Assembly: GCA_003056265.1 (NCBI GenBank)
Contig: NBVN01000001.1
Location: 150,001-182,000, forward strand
Reading direction: 5' to 3'
Source of the DNA: Zestosphaera tikiterensis
Lineage (GTDB): Archaea; Thermoproteota; Thermoprotei_A; Sulfolobales; NBVN01
DNA: 32,000 bases
The notes beneath the pieces were generated by a model. The model saw only the letters and a list, made by a program, of their open reading frames with translations. It did not search any database and was not told the origin of the DNA. Made by a program: the position numbers and the translations under genes. This document shows positions 5,927-23,924 of the stretch, one piece after another; the first letter of the stretch is position 1; each line of letters starts with the position of its first letter.

Positions 5927-6565
5927 TTAAAATGCTTTAAGTACATGTAGTGGAATAATTCTCTTTATTGATTTGAGGTGAGTTACATGGTATGTGGTTC
6001 TTGGCGGAAGAACTATATTTTCGGAAGTGACTTTATATACGTCTTGTTCATGTAGTTTTGGCATTATAATGCAAGTGTTGTATGAGAAGCAAACGTCTTT
6101 ATTCGAAGGAAGTTTGTACAGCATCGATAACGGGTTTTTATTAATAGTAAACTCCTTCATAGTTAAGTAGAAATCTATTTGATCAACACCTACTCTATAT
6201 ATGTCGTCATCAAATTTCACATATACTTCACTAGTACCGTGTTTAACAGAGTGAAGGAGTTCGTTGAAAAATCTCTTAGGATTTTCGCTAGCGTTAACGT
6301 CGTTAGACACATGCATCCAGCTATTAATAAATTTAATATCCTCTCCATAGTCGGCTTCCACTACAGGTACTTGCTTAAATCCAAGCATCTTTAGAGCGTG
6401 AAATCTATGATGACCGTCGATTATTACGTTTTTTACCTTATCGACGATTATCGGTTTAAATATATAACCGACTTTTAGCATAGATACTAAGATATTCTTC
6501 ATTCTATCATATTCGATTTCCTCATGAGGTATTAAATCATTTATTGATTTAAGTACTATCTTCAC
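5927..6565 (-). CDS. ParB/sulfiredoxin-fold domain protein (SerK-like free-amino-acid-kinase candidate), last gene of the cobamide operon
   Basis: The N-terminal pattern LIPHEEIEYDRMKNILVSMLKVGYIFKPIIVDKVKNVIIDGHHRFHALKMLGFKQVPVV is the ParB N-terminal/Srx-like motif (DGHHR). GTG start at 6565 lies 12 nt after the cbiB stop and is preceded by GAGGTAGG (SD-like). Three hand-counted 60-nt lines gave 35%, 35% and 28% GC, which appears lower than the neighbouring genes. Confidence 0.6.
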   Translation of the reverse strand: MKIVLKSINDLIPHEEIEYDRMKNILVSMLKVGYIFKPIIVDKVKNVIIDGHHRFHALKMLGFKQVPVVEADYGEDIKFINSWMHVSNDVNASENPKRFFNELLHSVKHGTSEVYVKFDDDIYRVGVDQIDFYLTMKEFTINKNPLSMLYKLPSNKDVCFSYNTCIIMPKLHEQDVYKVTSENIVLPPRTTYHVTHLKSIKRIIPLHVLKAF

Positions 6566-6577
6566 GGCGTCCTACCT

Positions 6578-7546
6578 CTAGACATAAGTCGATAAGAAAA
6601 CCGTTAAAACCACCGTGATTAAGAGCCATATCAAAGCTACAAACGTGGAAATCTTTAAAGCCTTCATCATTGCGATGTCATCTAATCTCTCTACGAATTC
6701 ACCTATACTGTAACTACCTATCTTTTCCAGCCTCACTTTTAACGCTCCCGCCATGGCGGACATGGGGTTTCCAGCGTTTATGCTTTCTGTAACCCCTCTA
6801 TAAATCCTCCAAATATTTAACGAGTATTTTATGCTGCCTCCTATTACAGGTGAAGATATTATTATTAGTAATGCCGCTACCCTAGCAGGTATAAAATTTA
6901 CTACTGTATCCATTTTTGCTGAAAACCACCCTACGTTTACATACTTTAAATCTTTATATCCGAGAGCGCTGTCCATCGTATTCACAACCCTTTGCAGTAA
7001 CCCTCCTATAGGTCCTAACATAGTGATGTAGAAGAGCGGGGAGACATATCCATCAACTAAGCTTTCGGCTAGGGACTCTATAGCCGCGGAGACTACGTGT
7101 TCATCATCGATTTGATAAACATCTCTGCGAACTATTTGCTGGACCCAATACCTACAACAATTCCAGTCGTTTCTAGATACACAAATAAGAGCTTTCTTCA
7201 CGATGCTTAGTAGAAGCCTTAATGAGAAGGAAGTCTTCATTATATAGCTTGCAATAACTACCCATAAGTACATACTTATATTCCAGGCTATGTATAGGAT
7301 GAGAATGTAGAAAAGTAAATGTGTTGTAACCGTTACTATCCACGCAATAAAACCTCTTACCTTAGAGCTATACGGCTTACCTAACTTACGTGCCATTACA
7401 TACGACGTATGTACGGGATGTATGAATAGCATGAACCCGCTATGGTAAGGGTATAAGTAATCTAATATGTGGGCTAAAAGAATACTTGCGAACATCAGCA
7501 ACGGATTTGAGGGATAGATAAAATCCGGGAGAATCATTGAAGACAC
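6578..7546 (-). CDS. cbiB: Adenosylcobinamide-phosphate synthase CbiB (CobD family membrane protein)
   Basis: Polytopic membrane protein with an N-terminal HPV motif (FIHPVHT) and the conserved NAGNPMSAMAGALKVRLEK block (compare SPNAG.P.AAMAGAL.V.LGG in CbiB). It sits in an operon with cobS, cobD and cobY. Confidence 0.85.
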   Translation of the reverse strand: MSSMILPDFIYPSNPLLMFASILLAHILDYLYPYHSGFMLFIHPVHTSYVMARKLGKPYSSKVRGFIAWIVTVTTHLLFYILILYIAWNISMYLWVVIASYIMKTSFSLRLLLSIVKKALICVSRNDWNCCRYWVQQIVRRDVYQIDDEHVVSAAIESLAESLVDGYVSPLFYITMLGPIGGLLQRVVNTMDSALGYKDLKYVNVGWFSAKMDTVVNFIPARVAALLIIISSPVIGGSIKYSLNIWRIYRGVTESINAGNPMSAMAGALKVRLEKIGSYSIGEFVERLDDIAMMKALKISTFVALIWLLITVVLTVFLSTYV

Positions 7547-7551
7547 CTAAA

Positions 7552-8325
7552 CTATATCGTTACAGAAAGCGTTAGAAGACTCAACGTCCTCAACAATTCG
7601 TATGTAAAGCCCATGACATCCCCCGTTACAAATCCTAATCTATGCTTTGAATCTCTATAAGAGAAAAGACACACAATAATAGTTAAGGTCAGCACTGTTA
7701 AGATTTGAGGAAATATCTTCGCATAAGAAACAGTAAGTAAAAATGCTACTGAGCTATATAGAGTTGCGTTGATCGCAACGTTCTTAAAAGATTTCGCATA
7801 CTTAGAAAACATATGGCCAAGACCCATATATGGCTCCTCCTTACCTATGACCGCAATGATATACATGGATTCAGCAGCAGAGACGTATACGAAAATCAAA
7901 ATTAACGTAAGCTCAGGAACTCCCAAAGCAACTAGCTTATTTAAAGAGATATAGTTTGCCATAAGGGATAACGTAAGTATAACTACGGAGAATGTGCCTC
8001 TCCTAGGATCCTTCATTATCTTTAAGGCTTCTTCACCTCTTTTATGAGATCCTATAACGTCAAGGTAATCACAATATCCATCCATGTGAATCCCTCCAGT
8101 TATAGCTATATGAGTAACTAGGCACAGAATGGCTATCATATCCGTGGGTAGCTCAAAAACGCTTAAGACGTTAAGTACTAGTCCAACAACACCTCCTTCA
8201 AACAACCCGATTAGAGGAACTAAGTAGAAGACCTTAGCACCAGCTTCAATATCCCCTTCGCCAGTGGGTATGGTTGTAAGGAAAGAAAGTAGAGACCTAA
8301 CACCTCTTGCTACTAAGTTATTCAT
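7552..8325 (-). CDS. cobS: Adenosylcobinamide-GDP ribazoletransferase (cobalamin synthase) CobS
   Basis: Membrane protein with the LSFLTTIP (FLTR.P-like) motif and the HMDGYCDYLD (H.DG..D..D) motif typical of CobS/CobV. I prefer ATG 8325 (MNNLVARG..), which forms an 8-nt ATGAATAA overlap with the cobD stop. The longer ORF to 8394 would overlap cobD by 77 nt. Confidence 0.85.
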   Translation of the reverse strand: MNNLVARGVRSLLSFLTTIPTGEGDIEAGAKVFYLVPLIGLFEGGVVGLVLNVLSVFELPTDMIAILCLVTHIAITGGIHMDGYCDYLDVIGSHKRGEEALKIMKDPRRGTFSVVILTLSLMANYISLNKLVALGVPELTLILIFVYVSAAESMYIIAVIGKEEPYMGLGHMFSKYAKSFKNVAINATLYSSVAFLLTVSYAKIFPQILTVLTLTIIVCLFSYRDSKHRLGFVTGDVMGFTYELLRTLSLLTLSVTI

Positions 8326-9409
8326 TGCGATCACCAAAGAGTTTACGCATGACTTCAATGAAGCGGTCGTTGTCGTGTTTACTTCTGATAGCAACCCTAA
8401 AGAAGTATTTTGTTAAAGGAGTGTAAGATGAAGCATCTCTAACGTAAATATTATATTTCATTAACATGTTGTTCATCTCCTCAGCTATAAACTTGTGACT
8501 TCGCACTAAGAGATATGGAGCGTAGGATCTATATACGACGAATCTCATATACTTTAAATGCGACGTAACCCTACTCCTTTCAAGGACTATATACCTCCTG
8601 GAAGTTTCCAGAAACTCCTTCATATCGTCTCTAAACCTACTAAGCAATTCTATAAACACGTGGTTAGCTATCGAGTTCACATTCCATGGTTGCCTATATA
8701 GGTCTAAAATCCTTGAAAGCTTACCACATACATGCATAAAGCCCATTCTAAGACCTGGTACGGAAAAAGACTTCGTTAAGCTCCTCACAACAACTATGTT
8801 ATCGTATTCTTCAACGAGGTGTAAGGCATTTTCTCGGAATTTTTCAGAGAGGTCCATAAAAGCTTCGTCAACAAATATGAGGCTTTCTCTAAATGATTCA
8901 GCTATTTCCCTTACATACTTAACTTCAATAAAACTTCCTGTTGGATTATTCGGATTCGATAGAAGTATTACTGACTTCCTAGCTATGTTGCTCGATATTG
9001 AGAGTAGCGGTTCTAACGGGAATATGAAGGCATCCATATTCTCGATATAATGAATAGAAGTCAACCGCACCCCTAACGCATAAGACGCCTCTCTATAATC
9101 ACCGAATGTAGGCTCAACCACTATGAGGTTTCTTGGTCTATATACGGCTAATACTATGTATAAAGCCTCGGCAGCACCGTTTAATGGAATTACGCACTGC
9201 TCTTTTATGTTGTAGAATTCTGCTAAAGCTTTCTTAAGATCGCTGTATTCATAGTCTGGGTACTTAATGATAGTATCTACGTTATCCTTAATTACCCTCT
9301 TAAGAATGTCAATTAAATGTTTCGGTGGTCCAAGAGGGTTTACAGGAACGGAGAAATCTAAAACGTTTTCAGCTACCCTACCGCCGTGGTATCTATTCAA
9401 AGGCATCAC
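8318..9409 (-). CDS. cobD: L-threonine-O-3-phosphate decarboxylase CobD (PLP-dependent, class I/II aminotransferase fold)
   Basis: YHGGR...LDFSVPVNPLGPP, YPDYEY, LSNPNNPTG, the PLP-lysine block RSLTKSFSVPGLRMGF and the C-terminal FFRVAIRSKHDNDRF all parallel Salmonella CobD (HGGN..LDFSANINPLG, SLTK, YYRVAIRS..N.RL). The operon context fits. Confidence 0.85.
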   Translation of the reverse strand: MMPLNRYHGGRVAENVLDFSVPVNPLGPPKHLIDILKRVIKDNVDTIIKYPDYEYSDLKKALAEFYNIKEQCVIPLNGAAEALYIVLAVYRPRNLIVVEPTFGDYREASYALGVRLTSIHYIENMDAFIFPLEPLLSISSNIARKSVILLSNPNNPTGSFIEVKYVREIAESFRESLIFVDEAFMDLSEKFRENALHLVEEYDNIVVVRSLTKSFSVPGLRMGFMHVCGKLSRILDLYRQPWNVNSIANHVFIELLSRFRDDMKEFLETSRRYIVLERSRVTSHLKYMRFVVYRSYAPYLLVRSHKFIAEEMNNMLMKYNIYVRDASSYTPLTKYFFRVAIRSKHDNDRFIEVMRKLFGDRNE

Positions 9410-9410
9410 C

Positions 9411-9962
9411 TTAGGCGGTTAACATGCCTTGTCTGCATAAACGTTCAACTATCTCCAAGTCACTCGGGGTATCTACATCTATGGCTTTACTGGAATCGTA
9501 AGCAATATTCGACCATGACCCACCACATCCCTTAAATAGCGAGATCCCTATAAGTTCTTCTACACCATTCTTAAGTATCGTCATAGTTACGACGTCGCCG
9601 TCTGTTTTCAAGGCCTTCACCGTAAAATCCTCTATCACAGACGTATACGTGAATACATCTCCAGACACGACAAGAGTTGGTTTTGGTAGCGAATATATTA
9701 AAAGCGATAGATCTTCAACGTAATCCTCACCTAAAGTCTCTACGCATTCAACATACAACCTACTACATAACTTAGTAATTACAGCAAAGCCAGACGTATG
9801 TTTCGATATAGCTATAACAACACATCCACACAAGGGTTTTACGACATCAATGACGTGCTCTATTAACGGCTTTCCACATACGTTAACTACTACCTTACTT
9901 GGAGAACCGTATCTAGAACCCCTACCTCCAGCCATAATAAGACATACTGGTATTTTAAACAT
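9411..9962 (-). CDS. cobY: Adenosylcobinamide-phosphate guanylyltransferase CobY (archaeal NTP-transferase type)
   Basis: N-terminal nucleotidyltransferase loop IMAGGRGSRYG. Size is about 183 aa. Its position between cbiZ and cobD fits. I prefer ATG 9962 (MFKIPV..), which forms an ATGTTTAA overlap with the upstream stop. Confidence 0.7.
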   Translation of the reverse strand: MFKIPVCLIMAGGRGSRYGSPSKVVVNVCGKPLIEHVIDVVKPLCGCVVIAISKHTSGFAVITKLCSRLYVECVETLGEDYVEDLSLLIYSLPKPTLVVSGDVFTYTSVIEDFTVKALKTDGDVVTMTILKNGVEELIGISLFKGCGGSWSNIAYDSSKAIDVDTPSDLEIVERLCRQGMLTA

Positions 9963-11046
9963 CTTCAGAACTACCTCGGACGTAGTCATATAATAGAGTA
10001 TATAAAGATCCTAGGAGAGCTGATATGATATCATCTTCAAAAGTGCCGAAGATTCCATGCTTAAGAATCTTACTTTCTTTTAATCGCTCCACCCAGTACA
10101 TAGAGAATAAACCCTTTAGTCCGGCTACATATGTGGCGAGAGCCATGCCAATGATTTCATCAGCCACTACCTTAGGTGAGTCCCTGGCGAATTCCTCCTC
10201 ACTAACGTTTGGTATTGTCCCCACAATTCCGTGGAGTTCGAGCTCTCTCGCTGCTATGATGAAGCTCCATGTGTTTGGATCGCCTAGAATCTTACGTAAT
10301 ATAATCCTCGCAATCTCTACAGCTTTTTCCTCAGACACATTAGGTATAGGCATATACCTGTAAAGATCTCTAAACATATTTAAAAACTCGTCCTTGCCTA
10401 GCCCGGTTAAGTAGTTAAACATCTTGTCTTCGTCACGTAGTGCTTTAGATACGATCATCTTATGAACAGTTTTAGCTATAGCGTTCCCAATAGTTGTCGC
10501 CATACCAGCGAACAAAATCTCTTCATTCATGTTCAACGGCTTTAAAACAGCTATGGCATCGGTGACGGTTCCTGAGGATCTAGTTCTACATCTAAGCATG
10601 ATATCATTGGAAGCTAAGCATTTAGCTTCGGCAACGGTTCTCAATAGATCTACCATAGCATTATTCGTTAACGGTTGCCGCACCGCCACAGCAATGTTTA
10701 TTGTTGATATTGTCATAGGTGTAAACACGTTTGTTTCTAAGCATACAGGCGGTTCTAAACCTACGGATATAAACACATCAGCACTTAAGTCATCTATCCT
10801 AATATGGTTGAAGTTATCTATTGACGTAGCCGTTATAAACACTACGGCGTTTTCAACACCTACTTCTTTAACTACGGATCTGTAATAATCAGCTAAGTTC
10901 TTAACATTGAAGTCCTTAGGGATAAATTTAAAAATTATATTCTCTACATAACCGTTATTAGACACTACAGGCACCGTCGACACGACCTTCATAGGGTTCG
11001 AAAACTCTACTATGACAGTATCATTATCAATCTTACTTACTCTCAT
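9955..11046 (-). CDS. cbiZ: Fusion protein: adenosylcobinamide amidohydrolase CbiZ (N-terminal) plus PgpA-like alpha-ribazole-5'-phosphate phosphatase CobZ (C-terminal)
   Basis: The N-terminal ~200 aa (..TINIAVAVRQPLTNNAMVDLLRTVAEAKCLA...SSGTVTDAIAV) matches the CbiZ pattern. The C-terminal ~150 aa carries DEIIGMALATYVAG and GIFGTFEDDIISALLGSLYTLL. These resemble the PgpA blocks DEFIGMWITL and GGMGIMIDDIVAGVISAGILY. I prefer ATG 11046 (MRVSKID) because it leaves 71 bp for the divergent promoters. The ORF-track start is 11088. Confidence 0.7.
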   Translation of the reverse strand: MRVSKIDNDTVIVEFSNPMKVVSTVPVVSNNGYVENIIFKFIPKDFNVKNLADYYRSVVKEVGVENAVVFITATSIDNFNHIRIDDLSADVFISVGLEPPVCLETNVFTPMTISTINIAVAVRQPLTNNAMVDLLRTVAEAKCLASNDIMLRCRTRSSGTVTDAIAVLKPLNMNEEILFAGMATTIGNAIAKTVHKMIVSKALRDEDKMFNYLTGLGKDEFLNMFRDLYRYMPIPNVSEEKAVEIARIILRKILGDPNTWSFIIAARELELHGIVGTIPNVSEEEFARDSPKVVADEIIGMALATYVAGLKGLFSMYWVERLKESKILKHGIFGTFEDDIISALLGSLYTLLYDYVRGSSEDV

Positions 11047-11117
11047 GCTAATCTGCCAAGATATTAGTAAACACAGACTTTTAACCATATGCTTAACTAG
11101 ATAGGCTGGGGGTCCTC

Positions 11118-12218
11118 ATGCGTGACATAGGGGTTGTAGATCTGTATGGATGCGCTGATAACCTTATCAATGAAATCCCGAATAGATTTCCGCAAGCTAT
11201 ATATTTCATAGCAAATACTAAAGTATCTACGATATCGGGAATAAGCATAGCTGGTGAAAACCCCGAGGCAACACTCTATACCCCAGCACTAGATGTTGAA
11301 TACTTAGTCTATGGAGAACCTAGAAGCGGCCCGTTACCCGTTACTCCAGAAGGCATTCCAACACCGGCTATAATCACTAGAGTGGCGTTAAACCTTCTTG
11401 CCATACCATTCATAATCGTTGATGTCGGTAGTTATATAGATCCAAGAATTCCACATATAGACATACCTGGAAAGATCATCGGCGGGAGAATAGATGTTGA
11501 AGATGCCCTACCAATAGAAAACGCTCGCTTACTGTTCAATTATTCAAAAACGTTGGGGATGATGTTAGGATCTAGCAAAACCACTATAGTCGTTGGTGAA
11601 TCAATGCCCGGCGGAACCACAACTGCTATGGCTATAATGGAATCACTAGGTTATAAAGCTATCGGGAAGGTCAGTAGTGCGTCTCCATCAAACCCACACG
11701 AGATTAAAAAGAAGGTATTCGCGGATGCTGTTAAAAGATCTGCTGTTGATATACCCATAGATGATGTTTATAAAGCTGTAGCGTTGTTCGGTGATCCTCT
11801 ACACATATCTATAGCAGGTTTCGTTAGTGGAGCTATTGAGAAGGGCTCTGTGGTTTTATTAGCTGGAGGTACACAGATGTGTTCAGTTGCAGCTATCCTT
11901 AAAAGACTTGGATTAACCGCAAGAGGTAAGATCGCTATAGCCACAACTAAGTGGATTGTTGAGGATTTCTCATCCGATATAAGAGGGCTTGTGAAAGATA
12001 TAGCGCCGGAAATACCCATAATATATACAAAACTAAGCTTCTCTAATTCTCGCTTCAATGGCCTTAAAGCATACGAAAACGGATACGTAAAAGAAGGCGT
12101 AGGTGCTGGAGGTACCGCAGTGCTATCCCATCTATATGGGCATGTCAATATAGACGTTCTATCATCTGAAGTTGAGAAGGAGTATAGTAGGATTGTGGAC
12201 GTAGCTAAAGGTAGGTGA
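11118..12218 (+). CDS. cobT: Archaeal-type nicotinate-nucleotide--dimethylbenzimidazole phosphoribosyltransferase CobT (UPF0284 family)
   Basis: SGISIAGENPEATLYTPALDVEYL, PEGIPTPAIITR, GESMPGGTTTAMA, LAGGTQM and VKEGVGAGG match the conserved blocks of MJ1598-type archaeal CobT. It is divergent from the cbiZ operon. Confidence 0.85.
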   Translation: MRDIGVVDLYGCADNLINEIPNRFPQAIYFIANTKVSTISGISIAGENPEATLYTPALDVEYLVYGEPRSGPLPVTPEGIPTPAIITRVALNLLAIPFIIVDVGSYIDPRIPHIDIPGKIIGGRIDVEDALPIENARLLFNYSKTLGMMLGSSKTTIVVGESMPGGTTTAMAIMESLGYKAIGKVSSASPSNPHEIKKKVFADAVKRSAVDIPIDDVYKAVALFGDPLHISIAGFVSGAIEKGSVVLLAGGTQMCSVAAILKRLGLTARGKIAIATTKWIVEDFSSDIRGLVKDIAPEIPIIYTKLSFSNSRFNGLKAYENGYVKEGVGAGGTAVLSHLYGHVNIDVLSSEVEKEYSRIVDVAKGR

Positions 12219-12221
12219 CGT

Positions 12222-12842
12222 ATGAAGGTAGCTATGGTGTCAGGCGGGAAGGACTCCATATATGCGCTTCTGCTTTATGGTGCTGTAGATTTAGGCGTTA
12301 TGCTCGTATACGAATTCCCTAGGCCGAGTCCACACCTCTTGAATATTGGTAAGAGTGTTGAGACGTTCTTATTGATGAACATACCGCTCATCGTCGTTAA
12401 GCTTAATAAAGGGAGGGAGAAGGTTGAAACAATAGAGGCTCTGAGGAAGTTAGGAGTTGATGTTATAGTAGCTGGGGATGTTTACATAAGCGATCACCTA
12501 ACGTATATGCAGTCCATCGCAGATGAAGTAGGTGCGAAGCTTGTAGAGCCTTTATGGAGTTTGGATCCCATCGAAATACTTTATAAGGAGATGGAGTACG
12601 GTATTAACGCATTATTCATAGGTGGTGTGAGCACGTTATTTAACTGGATTGGGAAGGAACTCAACGCTGGTAATGTAGGCGAGTTTATAGAGTACGCTAA
12701 GAAGATCGGTATAGACCCTCTAGGTGAAAAAGGTGAGTATCATACACTCGTTACATATACGCCGAGACATAAGCAAAGGGTTCAATATGAGATTGTGAGG
12801 ATTGATGAGTTTAACGGTTACTTCATTGCTAGGGTGATATGA
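12222..12842 (+). CDS. DUF71/COG2102 PP-loop ATP pyrophosphatase (MJ0570/Dph6-like; possibly the B12-salvage-associated subfamily)
   Basis: N-terminal PP-loop VSGGKDS and C-terminal GEKGEYHTLV (GE.GE.HT). ATG lies 3 nt after the cobT stop, with AGGTGA as SD overlapping that stop. Confidence 0.75.
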   Translation: MKVAMVSGGKDSIYALLLYGAVDLGVMLVYEFPRPSPHLLNIGKSVETFLLMNIPLIVVKLNKGREKVETIEALRKLGVDVIVAGDVYISDHLTYMQSIADEVGAKLVEPLWSLDPIEILYKEMEYGINALFIGGVSTLFNWIGKELNAGNVGEFIEYAKKIGIDPLGEKGEYHTLVTYTPRHKQRVQYEIVRIDEFNGYFIARVI

Positions 12843-13648
12843 TGGAAGTAGCGAACATGCCATGCCATATCTACGAGAAGCTTCTTATAGATAGAATAGC
12901 TGACGTTATAAGAAACACTGAGTGCGATTGCATAGCTTTAAGCGGGGGTATAGACACCTCACTTATAGCTGCTATATCTGTTAAAGTAGTTAATCATATA
13001 CCTAAAGCCTTAGTCGCATACTATAAGAACGGCATTCCAAGAGACCTTACGTACGCTTTACACGTAGCTAAAGTACTCAGTCTTGACATAGATTTTATAG
13101 AAATAGACGATAAGTACATCACTGAAATACTACCTGTAATATCGGAGATTGCTAAAAAAGGAGGGCATGAAGACTATATAGAGATTAGAAACGACATCGT
13201 ATTCTATGCAATCCTAGAGAAGGCTAGAAATAACTGTAAATGTATATACACAGGCTCTGGAGGTGATGAAGTGTTTTCAGGCTATTCATTTATGCACGCA
13301 CAATTGCTAGAAAACGAGATTGACGAGAAAAGGAGGGCATGGGCCTACGGCAGATATCCTGAAAAGGAGATATCAAAGTTAATAAACGTTAATATAGTAA
13401 CGCCGTATTTAGATCGAAAGGTATTAGAATTAGCGTTATCTATACCCGTAAGATGTCTACGAACAACTGTTCTCAGAGGAAAGGAAATCTTAAGAAACGC
13501 GTTAGAGGACATGAATTTAAGCGTGATAGCCGATAGAGCTAAAACACCAGCAGAAGCTGGAGCGGGAACAGATATCATAGACAACAATTACCTCATTAGG
13601 ATTAACTCGCAAATCACTCACTCGGGGGTTGTGGATGGATGTTATTAA
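12839..13648 (+). CDS. Asparagine-synthetase-like PP-loop amidoligase, synthetase domain only (no Ntn glutaminase domain)
   Basis: ALSGGIDTSLIA (SGG.D.S PP-loop), YTGSGGDEVFSGY (compare AsnB GEGADELFGGY), PYLDRKVLELALSIP and GKEILRNAL. At 269 aa it lacks the N-terminal glutamine amidotransferase domain. ATGA start/stop overlap with the DUF71 gene. Confidence 0.7.
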   Translation: MMEVANMPCHIYEKLLIDRIADVIRNTECDCIALSGGIDTSLIAAISVKVVNHIPKALVAYYKNGIPRDLTYALHVAKVLSLDIDFIEIDDKYITEILPVISEIAKKGGHEDYIEIRNDIVFYAILEKARNNCKCIYTGSGGDEVFSGYSFMHAQLLENEIDEKRRAWAYGRYPEKEISKLINVNIVTPYLDRKVLELALSIPVRCLRTTVLRGKEILRNALEDMNLSVIADRAKTPAEAGAGTDIIDNNYLIRINSQITHSGVVDGCY

Positions 13649-13708: not shown

Positions 13709-13725
13709 CTCGTTTTCGAGTTTTT
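13709..13725. terminator. Mini-hairpin CTCG-TTTT-CGAG followed by a T5 run, in the convergent gap between the AsnB-like gene and pyrE
   Basis: Seen directly: CTCGTTTTCGAG (13709-13720) then TTTTT. Related copies are AAAACGAG at 13664-13671 and CTCGCGTTTTCGAAG at 13681-13695. Oligo-T tracts are the usual archaeal termination signal. Confidence 0.3.
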
Positions 13726-14317
13726 AAACTTGCTGGTATTTTCTAATGTATTGTGTTAATTCTCTATACGTTGTTGCATCTATATATCCTTCGTTAACTA
13801 ATGTTTCGAATATTTCCTCAGCTGTTGTGAGGTAATGGTATTTAAGTCCTAAACCATCCACTCTTTTCTGAGCTCCTTGACATCGATCAACCACTACTAA
13901 AACCCCCTTAGGTCTAGCGCCAACCTCAACTAAAGCTTTGAAAGCTCTTTCTAAAGATTCACCCGTCGTTGCTACGTCATCAACTATTAACGCTTTACGT
14001 CCGGTTACATCGCCTTCAACGAAGCTTCGAGTTCCGTGGTCTTTCCTCTCCACTCGTACGTAAGCCATGGGCTTGCTCATATGTGAAGCTATATAAGCAG
14101 CTAGAGCTATACCGGAGGTTGCGACGCCAACTAAGGTCTCATAGTCTTCAGACTTTACTTTGTCGACGGCTTCCTTAACGATTAACTTCATTAGGTCTGG
14201 ATGGCTGTACATAACCCTTAAGTCTATGTAGAACGGGCTTTCAATACCTGAACTAAGTATGAACCTACCCAACTTCACTATGCCTCTCTTGTAGAACTCA
14301 ATCGCTAACTCACGCAT
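13724..14317 (-). CDS. pyrE: Orotate phosphoribosyltransferase
   Basis: PRPP-binding motif ALIVDDVATTGESL, FILSSGIESPFYIDLR at the N-terminus, and a typical size of 197 aa. It overlaps the pyrF 3' end by 13 nt. Confidence 0.9.
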   Translation of the reverse strand: MRELAIEFYKRGIVKLGRFILSSGIESPFYIDLRVMYSHPDLMKLIVKEAVDKVKSEDYETLVGVATSGIALAAYIASHMSKPMAYVRVERKDHGTRSFVEGDVTGRKALIVDDVATTGESLERAFKALVEVGARPKGVLVVVDRCQGAQKRVDGLGLKYHYLTTAEEIFETLVNEGYIDATTYRELTQYIRKYQQV

Positions 14318-14985
14318 TCCTTAATCGCCTCCTCCTGCTTAAGGACTATGTCATGGAAGGCTTTAATCGGGTCTGCTGCAGAGGTAATCGCCCTACCGAC
14401 TATCTCGTAGTCCGCTCCAGCACATATGCCTACTCCAGGCGGAGCTCCTTGAAAACCTACCCCAGGCGTTAAAATCTTAAGCTTATCGCCTGCTAAAGCC
14501 CTCACACGCTTAACGACGTCAGGTCTTGTAGCTGGAGCTACAACACCCCACACACCAGCTTTAATAGAGAGCTCAACCAACTCGTTTAAGTGCTTATCCA
14601 TAAACTCTAGAGAGCCTTTATGACTCATTGAAACCACGGTAATCAACTTTATGCCTAACTCCTTAGACTTAAGCGCTAATTTACCTACGCCGTCTTCATA
14701 ACCTACGAAAGCGTGGGCTATTACCCCATTGACTTTAGTTTTACTTAAACCTTCAAGAACGTTAACCATGATATCCCCTATGTCGGCAAGCTTTAAATCG
14801 GCTATAAGTAAGCCGTCGTAATCTCTAAACACTTCGTTTAACTTCCCTAAACCAACACGTAAGGTTAGAGGAAGCCCGACTTTAAAACCTTCCGCTAAGT
14901 CTTTTAAAGACGTATATCTCTGTTTCACCCAATCTAACGGGTTCACACCTTCAGGTGGGTCTAAAGCTACGATTACTTTACCCAA
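14305..14985 (-). CDS. pyrF: Orotidine-5'-phosphate decarboxylase
   Basis: KVIVALD, the catalytic ADLKLADIG block and GADYEIVGRAI. I prefer TTG 14985 (M-GKVIVALD, 226 aa), which has a TATA-like AAATTTTATAAG at 15013-15024. The ORF-track start ATG 15045 adds an odd W-rich 20-aa extension but cannot be excluded. Confidence 0.85.
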   Translation of the reverse strand: MGKVIVALDPPEGVNPLDWVKQRYTSLKDLAEGFKVGLPLTLRVGLGKLNEVFRDYDGLLIADLKLADIGDIMVNVLEGLSKTKVNGVIAHAFVGYEDGVGKLALKSKELGIKLITVVSMSHKGSLEFMDKHLNELVELSIKAGVWGVVAPATRPDVVKRVRALAGDKLKILTPGVGFQGAPPGVGICAGADYEIVGRAITSAADPIKAFHDIVLKQEEAIKECVS

Positions 14986-15051
14986 ATGCCCACTAAATAA
15001 ATGTAAGATAAGCTTATAAAATTTACTCCGTAACCACCACAGCATCTGGTT

Positions 15052-15831
15052 TTAATATATAACCTCAATAGGTAACACGACTTTCCTATTATTCACGTCA
15101 ACTATCCTTACCTTAACTTTATACACAGACTCTATTAAGTCCTCTCTGAAGACATCCTCGGGTTTTCCAGCCGCGATTATTTCGCCATTCGACATAAGTA
15201 TTGCTTTATCGGCGTATGTTGACGCTAGGTATAGATCGTGGATAGCTATTAATGAAGCTAAACCGCGGGTCTTAACCACTTTGTTGACGTAGGAGAGTAC
15301 TTCAAGCCTGTACCTTATGTCTAGGAAGGCGGACGGCTCGTCAAGCAGTAGAACCTTCGGTTGCTGTATTAAAGCTCTAGCTATGATTACCCTCTGCAAC
15401 TCACCACTACTTAACTGACTTAACTTCTTACTCATTAAATGCTCTATATTTAACTCCTTAACCACGCCCTCAATGAACTTCAGGTCTTCATAACTTTCGA
15501 ATATCTGAAGAGGTTTTTGATGAGGGTATCTCCCAGTAGCTAAGAACTCAGCCACGGTAGTTGGTAGGGTGTCGTTAACTCGAGCGTTAGCGTATGCGAA
15601 AACCTTAGCTAACTCCCTAGCGTCGTAATTTCTAGAGTCCCTACCATCTATGTAAACCGCCCCACTCTTAGGTTTAAGCATGGAAGCCACAACCTTAAGT
15701 AATGTTGTCTTACCGGCGCCGTTAGGCCCTACTACGTAAACAACCTCACCCTCGCTTACTTCAAAACTAACGTTCTTAAGAGTGGGGATTGAGTTGTAAG
15801 CGAAGGAAACATTCAAAACCTTAATCTTCAC
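15052..15831 (-). CDS. ABC transporter ATP-binding protein, FepC/BtuD (iron-siderophore/cobalamin) type
   Basis: Walker A GPNGAGKTT, signature LSSGELQR, Walker B LLLDEPSAFLD and H-loop AIHDL. 4-nt overlap with the upstream permease gene. Confidence 0.9.
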   Translation of the reverse strand: MKIKVLNVSFAYNSIPTLKNVSFEVSEGEVVYVVGPNGAGKTTLLKVVASMLKPKSGAVYIDGRDSRNYDARELAKVFAYANARVNDTLPTTVAEFLATGRYPHQKPLQIFESYEDLKFIEGVVKELNIEHLMSKKLSQLSSGELQRVIIARALIQQPKVLLLDEPSAFLDIRYRLEVLSYVNKVVKTRGLASLIAIHDLYLASTYADKAILMSNGEIIAAGKPEDVFREDLIESVYKVKVRIVDVNNRKVVLPIEVIY

Positions 15832-16868
15832 CTACTACCACCTCTTAAAATTAGGTAGGCTAGGAAAGGCGCCCCCATAACGCTCGTAACTATACCTACA
15901 GGCAACTCACTCAACCCTAGAGGCGTTAACGAAATAAGCCTAACGCATACGTCAGCTAAAGTCAGTAGCAAACCCCCAACCACAAAAGCTGTAGGTACTA
16001 CATACCTATGGTCCGAACCGACTAAGGCTCTAGTTATGTGTGGTACGGCGAGGCCTAGGAAGCCTATAATGCCTAAGACCGCGACCACAGACGCCGTTAG
16101 TAAGCTGGATATAAACGCGGAAAGTGTGGAGACGTACTTCGGGTTGAAGCCTAACTGCTTAGCGTGTTCGTCGCCGTAAATGTACGCGTTAAGCATTTTA
16201 GGAAGGCCTAAAAACAACACAGCAGCTGTAGCCAACACCGTCGGTATTGCTATGTAGTTTATTTCCTCAAGCAGCACATACGACGTCGAACCCATGAGTA
16301 GGAAGACGTAGGGCGTGCGTAAAACACCCTGCACTAAGTAAAGAAGTATATGTGAAATACCTGAGAAAAACGACGTTACAGCTATACCAGCTAAGATTAG
16401 TGAATGGCTTGAATTACCGGCAAGCCTGCTAAGCGTTAAGGTTAGGAAATACCCGATTAAAGCGCCTGCGAAAGCTATTAATATCATAACCCCTCTGTAA
16501 ACAACTAACGAGGAACTAACGAGGAACGTAAGTGCTACGGCGGTTAAAGCTGTTGACGATAGACCTAATATGTAAGGTTCAGCTAGAGGATTTCTAGTTA
16601 TTGCCTGCGTTAAAACACCCGCAACACCTAACGCTGAACCACCGAAAAATGAAGCTAGGGTTCTAGCCACCCTTATCTTAGCTATTGATAAAGTGCCTTC
16701 ATCACATCCTCTTAAGAAGCTTAAAACGCAGGGAAGAACATCCCATGAAAACGTTTTAGAAGTGCCTAACGAGAGGGAGGTAGATAGGGTTAAGATAGCT
16801 AGTATAGATAGTGTTAAAACAGCGGTTAAAAAACGCTTAACTGATTTTCTATAGATCTCCAAACTCAT
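15828..16868 (-). CDS. FecCD/BtuC-family ABC transporter permease
   Basis: 346-aa polytopic protein with FecCD-type blocks (NPLAEPYILGLSS, GIIGFLGLAVPHITRALVGSDHR, PVGIVTSVMGAPFLAYLI). Confidence 0.9.
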   Translation of the reverse strand: MSLEIYRKSVKRFLTAVLTLSILAILTLSTSLSLGTSKTFSWDVLPCVLSFLRGCDEGTLSIAKIRVARTLASFFGGSALGVAGVLTQAITRNPLAEPYILGLSSTALTAVALTFLVSSSLVVYRGVMILIAFAGALIGYFLTLTLSRLAGNSSHSLILAGIAVTSFFSGISHILLYLVQGVLRTPYVFLLMGSTSYVLLEEINYIAIPTVLATAAVLFLGLPKMLNAYIYGDEHAKQLGFNPKYVSTLSAFISSLLTASVVAVLGIIGFLGLAVPHITRALVGSDHRYVVPTAFVVGGLLLTLADVCVRLISLTPLGLSELPVGIVTSVMGAPFLAYLILRGGSR

Positions 16869-18022
16869 TAGCTAGGTACCTCTCCCTCAAGTACTGAGAT
16901 ACTGGAGACGGGGGTTGTCTCGAATTGAGTTATGTTGATTACGTCACTTCTTTGAATGAATCCAAAGATTTCCGGATGTATTAACTTAGCCAGTATTTCA
17001 AGAGCTACGTTAACTCTAGGTCCAGGCCTGCTGAGCACGTCATCGGCTTCACCCGTTAATAGATATATCCTCCCGTTCTTGAAGGCTTTAGTACCTTTTA
17101 TAGGTGATCCAGCTATCTCCTCATACACGGCTTTAGGATCTAACCCCGTAGCCGTTATTACAATGATGTCCGGATCCTGCGTTACTATATATTCATAGCT
17201 TAGTTGAGGCCACCCAACGTATTGCTCAGCCACGTTAACCCCGCCGGCTGTCTTTATAACCCACCCTATGAATGTGTTGCCCCCTGAGCTGAATATACCC
17301 CAAGACGGCGGGCCTACTAGGTGCAGGACTTTAGGTTTGGAAGCATTTACTTCATTAAGTTTTTGAGTTATCGAGTTCAGCGTGTTTTGAACTTCAGCGA
17401 TTAACTTACTCGACCTATCCAGTACGTCGAAAACCACAGCTATTAACTGAATGTCGCTGAATATATCGTTAACGTCTTGAGCGGATGTGGATTTAACGTA
17501 TATGACGGTTATACCTAACTCGCTTAACTTATCCTTAAGTCTAATATGTGGTGGCGTGCCTGACGAAGCTATTACTAAATCCGGCTTTAAAGACGCTATT
17601 TTTTCTATGTCCGGATTCCAAAAACCGCCTACGGTCTTCACCTTACCTTCGTTAATCAACTCAACGACTTTCGGGGGATAGTTGCTGAAGTCATCAACGC
17701 CAACGACCCTATCGTCAAGCCCTAAAGCAAATAGTATTTCAGTTATGCTTGGAGCTAAGGATACAACCCTTTCAGGAGGTCTGTTAATTGTTATAGACCT
17801 ACCTAAAGAATCAACTACGGTAAGGGGGTATTTCCCAACCACTGTGGATGTAGCTGTGGTTACCTCACGTGAAGTAACTACGGTTGTGACGTATTTAGTG
17901 GTTGTAATGAGTGTGGTTGCTGGGTTGATTAAGTTAATTCCGTAGCCTATAGCTACACCTACTAAAAGAACCGCAACAACCAAAAATTTCGTGTTGGGTT
18001 TCACTTTGGACACCCTATCCAA
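16868..18022 (-). CDS. Substrate-binding protein, Peripla_BP_2 (BtuF/FepB-like), membrane-anchored with a Thr/Val-rich linker
   Basis: N-terminal TM anchor (FLVVAVLLVGVAIGYGI), T/V-rich linker (TTLITTTKYVTTVVTSREVTTATSTVV), then PERVVSLAPSITEILFALGLDDRVVGV, typical of BtuF-like binders. TTG start 18022 (GTG 18013 and 18004 are alternatives). Confidence 0.85.
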   Translation of the reverse strand: MDRVSKVKPNTKFLVVAVLLVGVAIGYGINLINPATTLITTTKYVTTVVTSREVTTATSTVVGKYPLTVVDSLGRSITINRPPERVVSLAPSITEILFALGLDDRVVGVDDFSNYPPKVVELINEGKVKTVGGFWNPDIEKIASLKPDLVIASSGTPPHIRLKDKLSELGITVIYVKSTSAQDVNDIFSDIQLIAVVFDVLDRSSKLIAEVQNTLNSITQKLNEVNASKPKVLHLVGPPSWGIFSSGGNTFIGWVIKTAGGVNVAEQYVGWPQLSYEYIVTQDPDIIVITATGLDPKAVYEEIAGSPIKGTKAFKNGRIYLLTGEADDVLSRPGPRVNVALEILAKLIHPEIFGFIQRSDVINITQFETTPVSSISVLEGEVPS

Positions 18023-18134: not shown

Positions 18135-19115
18135 CTATTGAATAACGCATTTACGTTCTATCGTATCACGTAAAATCGAAGCAGCTTCTTCGGGCGTGTC
18201 ATCATATGTGAAGTTTCCAGCACCGCTTTCCACGCCTGCCGCATATTTTAACCTACCGCTGGTTCTATACATACCGTAAATCTCTATATGTAGGTGGTAG
18301 TAGCTGTAATGTCCCCGCATAGGTGCTTGATGTAGGACCATCGTGTACGGCATGGGGTTTTCAAAGATGTTTTTAACCCCACACAACACTTTCTTTAAGA
18401 CGTATGCTAAGTCTTCAGCCATAACTTCATTTACTTGGTTTAAAGTATTGATGTGTTTTAACGGGTATATATGAACTTCGAAAGGCCAGTGAGCGTAGTA
18501 AGGTATGAACGCAATCCAATGGCTGCTTTTTAAGATAATCCTTTCCTTATCGCTTACCTCGGCGTCTATTAAATCACAGAATAAACACCTCCCATATCTT
18601 TTGAAGTGATTTAAAGCGTTTGTAAGTTCCCTCCTTACTTTAGTAGGTATGAATGGAAGCACGTATATCTGGGAGTGCGGGTGTGTGAGTGAAACGCCGA
18701 CTTCCTTCCCTTTATTTCGGAAGTAGAGGAAGTAAACAGATCTCTTATCGCTTAACTCCTCAATATATTTATCTATAACGTATGTGATAACCTTACGTAT
18801 TTCTTCAACAGTTAAATCGCTGAGATCATCTAAATCGTGTTTCGGCGTCTCAACAACTATGTAGTTCTTACCGTATGAGGGGGCGTTCTTAAAGAATTTA
18901 TGGGGTCTTAACTTAGGGGGTTCCTCACTTAATATAGGGTATTTATTATTTAATATCAGTACGTCCCACCCGTGACCCGTCTCTGGAGTGCCGGGGCAGA
19001 AGGGGCAGAAACCTTCAGGGTGCCAAGGCCTTAACTCACGAACGTTAGAAACCATAACCCATTCCCCCAGTACAGGATCCCAACGTAGTTCCTGAACTAT
19101 ACGGTCGCTACTCAC
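18135..19115 (-). CDS. galT: Galactose-1-phosphate uridylyltransferase (HIT superfamily GalT)
   Basis: Zn-site CPFCPG and active-site HPHSQIY (H-x-H-x-Q). GTG start is preceded by GGTGA, which overlaps the galK stop. Confidence 0.85.
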   Translation of the reverse strand: MSSDRIVQELRWDPVLGEWVMVSNVRELRPWHPEGFCPFCPGTPETGHGWDVLILNNKYPILSEEPPKLRPHKFFKNAPSYGKNYIVVETPKHDLDDLSDLTVEEIRKVITYVIDKYIEELSDKRSVYFLYFRNKGKEVGVSLTHPHSQIYVLPFIPTKVRRELTNALNHFKRYGRCLFCDLIDAEVSDKERIILKSSHWIAFIPYYAHWPFEVHIYPLKHINTLNQVNEVMAEDLAYVLKKVLCGVKNIFENPMPYTMVLHQAPMRGHYSYYHLHIEIYGMYRTSGRLKYAAGVESGAGNFTYDDTPEEAASILRDTIERKCVIQ

Positions 19116-19121
19116 GTATAA

Positions 19122-20369
19122 TCACCACCGCATCACCTGCAGGCCTGAATCAACTGAGGTGATCCAGCCTCTAGACGCGCAACAACTTAAAACTTTATTT
19201 AACGCGTTAACAGCTACGTCTTTAGAGTTTGTTAAAGCTATTACTGAACCTCCTAACCCGGCACCGGAGAGCTTAGCTCCATAAACCCCACTTTCAAGTA
19301 AGGTATTAACGATCTTATCTATTTGAGGTAAGCTAACGTCATATAACTCACTAAGCAACCTATGTTGATATGTCATGACGGCACCTATGAGCCTTAAGCT
19401 AACGTCGTTACGTTCTAGCATGTCAATCACTTCGGAAGGTTTAAGCCTTAAGACCTTTGAAACTTCACTTACATCAACTTCCAAACCTTTAAGGATCTTA
19501 AGCGCTAGTAATGTGGATCTATGCATTCTTAACGTAAAGACTATCCTCTTAGACGCTATGTAATCTACTTTAGTGAGGTAAGGCATTAACTCCTCCTCAG
19601 ACAACTCGTCCCAGCGAGGCTCCCAATACTTTAAACCTAATTTACTCTTAAGCGATTCAGGTAGGTTTAACTTCAGAAGCTCTTCCAACCCTCTATTCAA
19701 TTCTAGCTGTCTCTTAGGGTGTATATCCGCCGTGGAATGTTTTATGCCGGAATCAACAACTATGAAAACACCCTTACTGAAGTTCAGCCTCTCAACGTCG
19801 TACGGAGGTTTAGTATTTATTGAGAGTATGCCTCCGTAAGCTGATGCGTATTGATCCAACCTACCGCAAGGTATGTTCATAATCTTGTTTTCAGCTTCGA
19901 AAGCTATTTCAGCCACTTCCTTAACGTTAAGACCTAAGCTAAGTAGCTCGTTTAAAGCGCCTACAACACCAACCTCTAAAGCAGCACTGCTTCCTAAGCC
20001 AGCGGCTATAGGGACGTCGCTATCTATGTAGATTTCGCAAGGCTTAATGAGGCATCCCCGCCTCATTAAAGCAAGGATTGAAGCCCTAACGTAATCCCCA
20101 AACCATCCACTCCCAACTAACTTAAGGTTCCTTAAGTCAAAACTGTCTGAAAGCCTCAGCGAGTTCGTATAAACCTTAAACCTACCGTCATGGCTATCCC
20201 CTACAGCAACGAAGGTGCGTAAGTTAATAGCTACCGAAACGACGGGTAAGCCCTTATAGTCTTGATGTGTGTTGAGGAAGTCTAACCTGCCTGGAGCAGA
20301 AGCTATTAAACATGGCTCTTTATTAAAAACTTCTTTAAACCCAGAGGCTAAGGAATTAACGTCAACCAC
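19122..20369 (-). CDS. galK: Galactokinase (GHMP kinase)
   Basis: Galactokinase signature APGRLDFLNTHQDYKG (GR.N.IGEH.DY-like), GHMP motif PIAAGLGSSAALEV and the C-terminal GAKLSGAGLGGSVIAL. GTG start with a TATA-like AAACTATAGTTA about 20 nt upstream. Confidence 0.85.
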   Translation of the reverse strand: MVDVNSLASGFKEVFNKEPCLIASAPGRLDFLNTHQDYKGLPVVSVAINLRTFVAVGDSHDGRFKVYTNSLRLSDSFDLRNLKLVGSGWFGDYVRASILALMRRGCLIKPCEIYIDSDVPIAAGLGSSAALEVGVVGALNELLSLGLNVKEVAEIAFEAENKIMNIPCGRLDQYASAYGGILSINTKPPYDVERLNFSKGVFIVVDSGIKHSTADIHPKRQLELNRGLEELLKLNLPESLKSKLGLKYWEPRWDELSEEELMPYLTKVDYIASKRIVFTLRMHRSTLLALKILKGLEVDVSEVSKVLRLKPSEVIDMLERNDVSLRLIGAVMTYQHRLLSELYDVSLPQIDKIVNTLLESGVYGAKLSGAGLGGSVIALTNSKDVAVNALNKVLSCCASRGWITSVDSGLQVMRW

Positions 20370-21281: not shown

Positions 21282-21959
21282 TCAAGAGAGTAACTCGCTT
21301 AAAACCCTAGCTATGATGGACCTAGTATTTAATACCATACTGTTAGGTCCTAAACCTTCCTTAAGCGCCTCCTTCTGCTTTAAAGTATAGCCTATACAGT
21401 CCATAACGACGAATTTAACGCCTTTGCTAGATAGCTCTCTCCCCACTTTAACGAAGTCTTCAAGACTTGACCTATATGGCGAGATAGCCCTAACCTCAAC
21501 CTCCGGATGTATTTTCAACCACCTCTTCCTCATATACGGGATCTGCTCCTCCCCCGGTATTAAAACACCTAAAACACCCTTAACGTGAAGTGTAGACACC
21601 ACACCCTTAAGTAACTTATCCGGGTAAATCACAGGCACTTCAACGTCATACTCGGGGAACTCACCAGAGCATATTATAACTATGAGATCCACACCCTCCT
21701 TAACGAGTTCATCCAACTTAACCTTAACAAGCTTCACGACTTTGTTTTTTGATATTTTTACTTCTTTTCCGTTTTTTAGCTTTGTTATGTATGTTGTTTC
21801 GTTTTTTCTTGGTTTTAGTTTTTTATTTATTTCTTCTTCTGTGTAGTTGTCTAAAGCTCCTTTCTCTATAATTTCAATATCTTTAGGTAGTAAATGTTTA
21901 ATATCGTTAAAAACATCAACCCTAGGAGACTGACCAATAGTAACAAAACCAACCCTCAA
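21282..21959 (-). CDS. AroM-family protein
   Basis: N-terminal VGFVTIGQSPRVD, VVMDCIGYTLKQKEALKEGLG and the C-terminal NTRSIIARVLSELLS parallel E. coli AroM ([42 protein letters not shown]). Confidence 0.7.
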   Translation of the reverse strand: MRVGFVTIGQSPRVDVFNDIKHLLPKDIEIIEKGALDNYTEEEINKKLKPRKNETTYITKLKNGKEVKISKNKVVKLVKVKLDELVKEGVDLIVIICSGEFPEYDVEVPVIYPDKLLKGVVSTLHVKGVLGVLIPGEEQIPYMRKRWLKIHPEVEVRAISPYRSSLEDFVKVGRELSSKGVKFVVMDCIGYTLKQKEALKEGLGPNSMVLNTRSIIARVLSELLS

Positions 21960-22065
21960 AACTTACTGCCTCCATAATTTAACCGTTAACGAGCATTTAA
22001 AGCTGTATGTATTCTGACAGGTTCTGTATTTAAGTGGCGCAGTAGATTAATAAAAGGTGTTTAAA

Positions 22066-23852: not shown

Positions 23853-23924
23853 GGCCATGCTTCACTTAAGTGTTCTAAAGGATAACTTGCATTCTTTATT
23901 AACCGTTAAAACGTTTGCTTAACG

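Follow-up and report, generated by a model that had tools for sequence, protein, structure and literature searches.

We analyzed a window of 32,000 nucleotides (nt) from the archaeon Zestosphaera tikiterensis (contig NBVN01000001.1, positions 150,001 to 182,000), in which a minus-strand operon for cobamide loop assembly ends with a gene encoding a 212-amino-acid (aa) protein with a ParB/sulfiredoxin (Srx)-type motif. The operon runs in the order cbiS(cbiZ-cobZ)-cobY-cobD-cobS-cbiB-kinase gene, and cobT is divergent. We call the terminal gene the kinase gene since it is a candidate for an L-threonine kinase, an identification that we hold to be evenly balanced and for which L-serine is the main rival substrate. 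The following features were found in this part of the window:

5927..6565, minus strand: candidate L-threonine (or L-serine) kinase gene, SerK/SbnI-like two-domain protein of 212 aa, GTG start
6571..6578, minus strand: Shine-Dalgarno (SD)-like GAGGTAGG, read from the sequence; overlaps the cbiB stop codon at that codon's final base
6578..7546, minus strand: cbiB, adenosylcobinamide-phosphate synthase, which uses the CobD-made aminopropanol phosphate (PF03186, 242 bits; NF002281, 316 bits)
7552..8394, minus strand: cobS, cobamide 5'-phosphate synthase (PF02654, 136 bits; TIGR00317)
8318..9409, minus strand: cobD, short form of the pyridoxal phosphate (PLP)-dependent L-threonine-O-3-phosphate decarboxylase (TIGR01140, 248 bits, under the 290.55-bit cut-off)
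9411..9989, minus strand: cobY, adenosylcobinamide-phosphate guanylyltransferase (NF045495 and PF12804, both weak, plus gene position)
9955..11088, minus strand: cbiS, CbiZ amidohydrolase fused to CobZ alpha-ribazole phosphatase (NF038002, 269.5 bits, cut-off 250)
11118..12218, plus strand, divergent from the operon: cobT, archaeal type (TIGR00303, 298 bits; NF003372, 397 bits)

An earlier note on this DNA had described the 212-aa ParB/Srx-motif gene as starting 12 nt past the cbiB stop behind an SD-like sequence, and each of these elements could be located. The GTG start codon lies at 6563-6565 and the TAG stop of cbiB at 6578-6580, leaving a spacer of 12 nt; judging from its sequence and position, GAGGTAGG is a putative ribosome-binding site of the kinase gene. 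The motif PIIVDKVKNVIIDGHHRFHALKMLGFKQVPVV, which includes DGHHR, corresponds to residues 38-69 of the protein. Homologues begin at the matching residue (MKI../MEI..), which supports the GTG start of the 212-aa open reading frame (ORF). The operon was also said to have junctions of 12 nt or less throughout; the longest ORFs of cbiS/cobY and cobD/cobS overlap by 35 nt and 77 nt, probably reflecting start-codon choice, and the description otherwise holds. The kinase gene is indeed more AT-rich than its neighbors. Its GC content of 33.3% is the lowest in the window, against values of 38.6-40.9% across the operon and 42.0% over the window as a whole. The deficit resides mainly at second codon positions (GC2 = 0.231) and reflects an amino-acid composition rich in Lys, Ile, Asn and Tyr; GC at third positions (GC3, 0.325) resembles that of cobT (0.331). 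The idea that the gene joined the operon late finds no support, because the same position is kept in eight divergent lineages; on this ground, together with the GC2-based deficit and the cobT-like GC3, recent horizontal acquisition was rejected as well. A scan for promoters and terminators returned counts no higher than the shuffle expectation, using a bacterial consensus that is not applicable to archaea.

One reaction is absent from the CbiZ salvage route encoded by the operon, namely the supply of L-threonine-O-3-phosphate to CobD. To our knowledge, the L-threonine kinase gene is not known for most archaea and many bacteria, and only three unrelated enzymes of narrow distribution are known. 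The loop-assembly genes were confirmed, but to say that every step from cobinamide to cobalamin except one is present slightly overstates the case, as the window holds no corrinoid adenosyltransferase. TIGR01140 spans residues 11-354 of the 363-aa CobD, which therefore carries no fused kinase or extra domain, as had been proposed. The best match of this CobD in the Protein Data Bank (PDB) is Salmonella CobD (1lc5, E = 3.9e-35), relative to which it has no additional N-terminal region. No PduX-type kinase was detected in the window with Pfam or NCBIfam models, in agreement with the earlier reading of the locus; BluE was not searched for. GalK is the sole GHMP kinase encoded in the window, and the 212-aa protein has no GHMP match (PF00288/PF08544). 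GHMP kinases were also considered as a hidden PduX and rejected: the one in the window is GalK by its signature and its place beside GalT, and the one at a related locus (L004) is pantoate-kinase-like. The galT-galK pair, with the galactokinase signature present, occupies 18135-20369 on the minus strand.

The 212-aa protein ranks SerK first (E = 1.5e-13) and SbnI second (E = 1.9e-8) among NCBIfam models, and phmmer against the PDB matched SerK of Thermococcus kodakarensis (Tk-SerK, 5x0b) with E = 1.9e-8. The matches to both NCBIfam models are confined to the N-terminal ~85 residues, and the scores fall far under their cut-offs (50.4 bits against 380 for the SerK equivalog NF053625; 34 against 350 for SbnI NF033589), so this kinase-like protein represents a distinct subfamily, orthologous to neither. 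A profile of eight homologues reached SbnI over both domains (profile 8-212 to chain 15-223, E = 1.4e-14) and paired the C-terminal SPKTTRHV of SerK with the family-invariant LPPRTTxH. An AlphaFold (AF2) model built on the eight-homologue alignment had a predicted local distance difference test score (pLDDT) of 91.5 and a predicted TM score (pTM) of 0.85. In a Foldseek search of the PDB, the top 9 matches were all SerK or SbnI over their full length (query TM score, TMq, 0.65-0.76; E 1e-11 to 1e-13), followed by a sharp fall to ~80-residue matches with ParB/Srx N-domains (TMq ~0.3). As modeled, the protein is a complete SerK/SbnI-type two-domain enzyme, and the kinship with SerK suggested earlier is upheld by NCBIfam ranking, profile and structure alike.

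Two other members of this fold were considered and set aside. A partition ParB does not fit: TIGR00180 scored 20.3 bits against a cut-off of 58.45, no helix-turn-helix or dimerization domain was found, Pfam ParB_N (24.1 bits) remained under its gathering score of 26.3 bits, and the Foldseek alignments to ParB, Noc and KorB were limited to ~80 N-domain residues. No ParA-like gene was present among the annotated genes of the window or the called genes in ~20 kb around the orthologue of Ignisphaera aggregans (L001). Sulfiredoxins are single domains of ~90-130 aa with a catalytic Cys in an FGGCHR-type motif; here DGHHR has no Cys, a second domain is present and the TMq to Srx is only 0.24-0.31.

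The residues expected at a kinase active site are strongly conserved. In the eight-sequence alignment H14, E15, D50, G51, H52, H53, R54, P188, R189, T190, T191, H193, T195 and K198 are invariant; in other words, HE, DGHHR and the C-terminal PPRTTxH.T.LK are unchanged across ~40% sequence divergence. E15 aligns with the residue altered in the E30Q/E30A crystal forms of SerK (5x0b wild type versus 5x0j E30Q), and W83, also invariant, stands opposite a Trp of SerK and SbnI.

Genomic contexts of homologues were gathered from exact-protein look-ups, a scan of GTDB species genomes and a scan of JGI metagenomes with the eight-sequence alignment, and the nine cobamide proteins of the window were placed on every locus by tblastn. 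Grouping the homologues at 80% identity or more gave 13 lineages (median pairwise identity, 41%). The locus includes cbiB in 10/13 lineages, through several rearrangements, and cobD was found at the cbiB loci wherever the contig extends far enough. The predicted co-occurrence of the ParB-fold gene with cbiB, cobD and cobS in related genomes was thus recovered, these 10 lineages having cbiB together with loop-assembly genes. The contexts were distributed as follows:

8 lineages: kinase gene directly following cbiB, same strand
1 lineage (I. aggregans): kinase gene 2.9 kb downstream of cbiB, with two opposite-strand genes between
1 lineage (L014/L040): kinase gene and two PP-loop genes transferred as a block to the operon's other side, on the opposite strand, adjacent to cbiB
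1 lineage (L017/L044/L045, Ca. Methanodesulfokora, Korarchaeota): beside MtaA, RACo/RamA, MtaB and MtaC
1 lineage (L038): beside an MtmB-family gene and RACo
1 lineage (L047): member of a TrpB2-linked group

All members of the cobamide-linked clade with examinable context adjoin genes of cobamide synthesis or cobamide use. The corrinoid-methyltransferase contexts (L017 3683-10621; L044 2527-8621; L038 91-5086), which take the place of a cob operon, are weaker evidence, because the MtaABC and MtmB genes are neighbors and not operon partners. In the MtmB-family gene of L038 (1143-2515, minus strand), a frameshift from frame 2 to frame 1 leaves two separate ORFs. An in-frame pyrrolysine (Pyl) UAG was considered for this gene and rejected, as the frames show a frameshift and the position where Pyl usually occurs carries no stop; the gene may be a pseudogene, or a non-Pyl MtmB homologue affected by an error of assembly. 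Over the cobamide cluster, proteins of the window are 58-79% identical to those of I. aggregans DSM 17230, which makes the source of the window an uncultured relative of that archaeon. In I. aggregans, cbiB and the kinase gene are set apart by two genes (L001 7183-9817), one for a 432-aa protein without family match and one for a Na+/H+ exchanger; as both are opposite-strand insertions, the kinase gene presumably has its own promoter.

Two further genes accompany the cluster in lineages whose contig passes the kinase gene. In the window they are:

12222..12842, plus strand: DUF71-B12 PP-loop ATP pyrophosphatase of the TTX_0299 family, EKGEYH motif (NF052347, 281 bits; synteny)
12839..13648, plus strand: Asn-synthetase-like (AsnS-like) PP-loop protein without glutaminase domain (PF00733, 82 bits; synteny with the DUF71-B12 gene)

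The DUF71-B12 gene directly follows the kinase gene in most lineages, with gaps of -4 to 17 nt; the window resembles I. aggregans in that both genes adjoin cobT instead. A role of DUF71-B12 in B12 salvage was predicted in 2012, in a paper in which we found no discussion of its constant AsnS-like partner (PMC3541065).

We proceeded to the wider family. A profile search over 1.84 billion representatives yielded 2142 relatives at E < 1e-3 and 22 at E < 1e-30. The nearest relatives outside cobamide loci, a sister group in other Thermoproteota, have a PALP-family PLP-enzyme gene directly upstream at 6/6 loci examined (P0051, P0062, P0066, P0068, P0216 and L047). PALP-linked SerK-like genes are located as follows:

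L032: 1914-2501
L033: 10001-10612
L034: 10001-10609
L035: 10001-10648
L036: 10001-10639
L047: 597-1280

The PALP neighbors typed by NCBIfam (L032-L034) were all three of the TrpB2 type (TIGR01415/NF009057, ~700 bits). TrpB2 enzymes are reported to use O-phospho-L-serine (Busch et al. 2014), so that the SerK-like proteins linked to them probably phosphorylate serine in the service of TrpB2. We found no published description of this gene pairing. In addition, P0099 (582 aa) fuses a SerK-like N-domain (ParB_N at 5-78, PPKTTCH motif) to a PALP-family PLP enzyme (282-552), which lends Rosetta-stone support to a coupling of kinase and PLP enzyme in this family. The characterized members conform to the same pattern. 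The product of SbnI is consumed by SbnA, a PLP enzyme. SbnI makes O-phospho-L-serine used in making staphyloferrin B according to a title cited in PMC12704722, and SerK is reported to feed CysK, likewise a PLP enzyme (PMC5120207). SerK-like kinases therefore appear to feed a phospho-amino acid to the PLP enzyme encoded beside them, and in cobamide operons the matching PLP enzyme would be CobD.

In a neighbor-joining tree, the members from cobamide contexts group together, nested among the PALP/TrpB2-linked lineages. Since bootstrap values are weak (18-36%), we gave more weight to context labels and profile scores, which agree: cobamide members score at least 186 bits and all others at most 155, and the labels segregate cleanly. 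More distant SerK-like proteins occur in Sulfolobales (L037 10001-10591 of Sulfuracidifex metallicus, P0226, P0230 and P0257); the L037 locus has neither cob nor TrpB2 neighbors, and glycosyltransferase genes follow the SerK-like gene.

Comparison of the groups separates what is shared from what is particular to the cobamide clade. H14, E15, D50, G51, H52, H53, R54, Y73, T190, T191, H193, T195 and K198 are common to the cobamide and other groups, so the catalytic apparatus is intact; E15, the counterpart of Tk-SerK E30 in the N-terminal PHE motif, is present in 97-100% of each group. On the other hand, M84 (beside W83), K151, P153, C159, C165, Y177 and R189 are fixed only in the cobamide clade, R189 replacing the usual Lys of the P-K-T-T motif. 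At the level of sequence, this is the pattern that a specificity shift would produce.

Taken as a whole, we lean slightly toward the proposal that the gene encodes a SerK/SbnI-type kinase supplying L-threonine-O-3-phosphate to CobD. A soluble two-domain enzyme of this type would act on a free hydroxy-amino acid. Its N-terminal ParB/Srx-fold domain would bind a nucleotide phosphate donor (ATP, ADP or CTP) via DGHHR, Glu15, equivalent to Glu30 of Tk-SerK, would serve as catalytic base on the substrate hydroxyl, and the C-terminal domain with PPRTTYH would close the cleft. L-threonine would be converted to L-threonine-O-3-phosphate, which CobD, encoded three genes upstream, would decarboxylate to (R)-1-aminopropan-2-ol phosphate; CbiB would then attach this linker phosphate to cobyric acid. 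The kinase step would complete the CbiZ-dependent cobinamide salvage route of the operon. The earlier nomination of a SerK-like protein for the missing kinase has been favored by all computational checks run: profile, structure, linkage and rival kinases in the window.

The proposed enzyme shares features with several known systems. Three types of L-threonine kinase (EC 2.7.1.177), PduX, the Rhodobacterales enzyme BluE and an N-terminal domain present in CobD of Methanosarcina mazei (MM2060), carry out the reaction proposed here, the supply of L-threonine-O-3-phosphate to CobD. The fold of BluE and of the MM2060 domain is unrelated to the SerK type, PduX is a GHMP protein as opposed to the ParB/Srx and SerK C-domain fold, and the window CobD has no extra domain of the MM2060 kind. 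SerK (T. kodakarensis TK0378, 5x0b; P. furiosus 1vk1), an archaeal ADP- or ATP-dependent free L-serine kinase (PMC5120207), has the same two-domain layout in ~210-240 aa, a ParB/Srx N-domain with DGHHR, a catalytic Glu in a PHE motif, a C-terminal P-K/R-T-T-x-H, full-length Foldseek TM scores of 0.65-0.73 and a product expected to feed a PLP enzyme. Unlike SerK, to which it is ~19-20% identical and which outdoes it by ~30 residues in length, our protein scores 50 bits on a model with a 380-bit cut-off and is encoded among cobamide loop-assembly genes (10/13 lineages), not genes of cysteine and serine metabolism (CysK, SerA, aminotransferase); its predicted substrate is L-threonine, which SerK rejects (PMC5120207). 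SbnI of Staphylococcus (5ujd, 6nr6) is similar over both domains in profile (E as above) and structure (Foldseek TM 0.72-0.76), and is likewise encoded in a biosynthetic operon whose PLP enzyme uses its product. It differs in being bacterial, in its identity of 19-22%, in having DGVHR and, in place of K/R-TT-x-H, VPAGVTRF, and in its extra C-terminal region and its DNA- and heme-responsive regulatory role. The TrpB2-linked SerK-like proteins (P0051, P0062, P0066, P0068 and P0216) are closer, with 27-38% identity, the same length and motifs and a place beside a PLP enzyme; their neighbor is a PALP-family gene in contrast to cbiB/cobD, and they differ at M84, K151, P153, C159, C165, Y177 and mostly at R189 (K in 64%).

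The strongest alternative, though in our judgment an unlikely one, is that the protein has kept an ancestral L-serine specificity, with CobD producing ethanolamine phosphate and thus a norcobamide-type linker, or that it accepts both serine and threonine. The characterized members SerK and SbnI are all serine kinases, the cobamide clade is nested among PALP/TrpB2-linked lineages whose TrpB2 partners are reported to use O-phosphoserine, and the catalytic and motif residues are identical to those of these relatives. However, the window CobD is closer to the Salmonella L-threonine-phosphate decarboxylase 1lc5 than to 6oux (E = 2.2e-23), which we take to be the Sulfurospirillum L-serine-phosphate enzyme. 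It also has no counterpart of an extra N-terminal region on which the Sulfurospirillum decarboxylase reportedly depends, and we know of no norcobamides from organisms other than Sulfurospirillum. M84, R189, Y177, C159 and C165, fixed in the cobamide clade near conserved active-site motifs, are again what a change of substrate would lead one to expect.

Another alternative, which we regard as improbable, is a kinase for a different cobamide-related hydroxyl: (R)-1-aminopropan-2-ol released by CbiZ, adenosylcobinamide, alpha-ribazole or the substrate of the DUF71-B12 enzyme. Aminopropanol and the aminopropanol arm of cobinamide bear the hydroxyl of threonine, adenosylcobinamide phosphorylation is the CobU-like kinase step absent from archaeal CobY, and the gene invariably has cobamide genes nearby, also at corrinoid methyltransferase loci without cobD in view. 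Its place immediately upstream of the DUF71-B12 gene in most lineages counts in favor as well; in the window and I. aggregans, however, the kinase gene has stayed near cbiB and it is the DUF71-B12 gene that was relocated beside cobT. Moreover, the CbiZ and CobD route of the operon makes such activities unnecessary, and the SerK/SbnI cleft takes a small amino acid, with all precedents from family context involving a PLP enzyme that receives a phospho-amino acid. Finally, it is very improbable that the protein has no metabolic kinase role and regulates the operon as a ParB-like DNA-binding or nucleotide-switch protein, or acts as a ParB-type nuclease: the public names point that way, SbnI is a bifunctional regulator and O-phosphoserine synthase according to NCBIfam and a SerK-like archaeal protein is reported to bind CTP (PMC12704722), but the kinase catalytic Glu is invariant and the domains, full-length ParB-type alignment and ParA partner of such proteins are missing at the places described above.

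Several considerations weigh against L-threonine and a coupling to CobD. Tk-SerK rejects both L-threonine and L-homoserine (PMC5120207), so that use of L-threonine would require an altered pocket. The cobamide clade apparently derives from lineages that are probably serine-specific, with a bootstrap of 18-36% at the boundary. Given its tight linkage to the DUF71-B12 gene, the kinase gene might act in support of the DUF71-B12 enzyme instead of CobD. The members linked to cob operons all come from one archaeal group (Ignisphaera, Desulfurococcaceae-like), and synteny is possibly in part inherited. The case is built from sequence, predicted structure and gene context, and the screen for rival kinases covered the window and a related locus (L004). 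The clade is also narrow, comprising Ignisphaera-like Thermoproteota and a few korarchaeal-type members. L-threonine kinase is consequently a lineage-specific answer; the protein had been put forward as a candidate for the missing archaeal L-threonine kinase, and it stands as the best candidate so far for this lineage but not for archaea as a whole.

Beyond the cobamide cluster, the window contains a possible corrinoid importer:

15052..18022, minus strand: BtuFCD-like ABC importer comprising ATPase, FecCD permease and binding protein (PF00005, PF01032, PF01497)

From its context, this importer would take up corrinoid, consistent with a corrinoid-salvaging organism. It is separated from the cobamide cluster by pyrE-like and pyrF-like genes (13724-15045, minus strand), importer and cluster being ~1.4 kb apart. 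Further along, at 21282-24884, AroM, Asp/Glu racemase-like, S-Me-THD-like (DUF917-type) and DUF1177 genes precede those for an OPT transporter and an M20 peptidase, and the cluster may be a peptide or hydantoin-type utilization module.

Homologues of the 212-aa protein are publicly named 'ParB domain protein nuclease' (the I. aggregans orthologue) or 'ParB N-terminal domain-containing protein'. We found no earlier report linking SerK- or ParB-like proteins to threonine kinase or cobamides, in a literature coverage that was incomplete, so that this is absence of evidence only. Neither a cobamide-linked SerK-like protein nor a ParB-fold threonine kinase is mentioned in a 2025 survey of the ParB-CTPase fold (PMC12704722), PMC5120207, a tetrapyrrole review (PMC7242693), the GapMind 2026 preprint and PMC3541065. 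The new element is a predicted substrate and pathway for the known SerK/SbnI family. With the odds about level, the cobamide-linked clade would be a fourth independent type of L-threonine kinase after PduX, BluE and MM2060 and the first of the SerK family with a non-serine substrate, and SerK-like proteins would be modular kinases for adjacent PLP enzymes (CysK, SbnA, TrpB2 and CobD).

The proposal is directly testable, as the protein is small and predicted to be soluble and thermostable, and a cultured orthologue exists in I. aggregans DSM 17230. If true, it would explain how cobinamide salvage is completed in Ignisphaera-like archaea and would improve pathway prediction in metagenomes, where such genes are now called 'ParB domain nuclease'. 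It would also widen the known chemistry of the ParB/Srx fold to a substrate other than serine. An annotation rule is suggested by these observations, whereby a SerK-like kinase encoded beside a PLP enzyme would make the phospho-amino-acid substrate of that enzyme.

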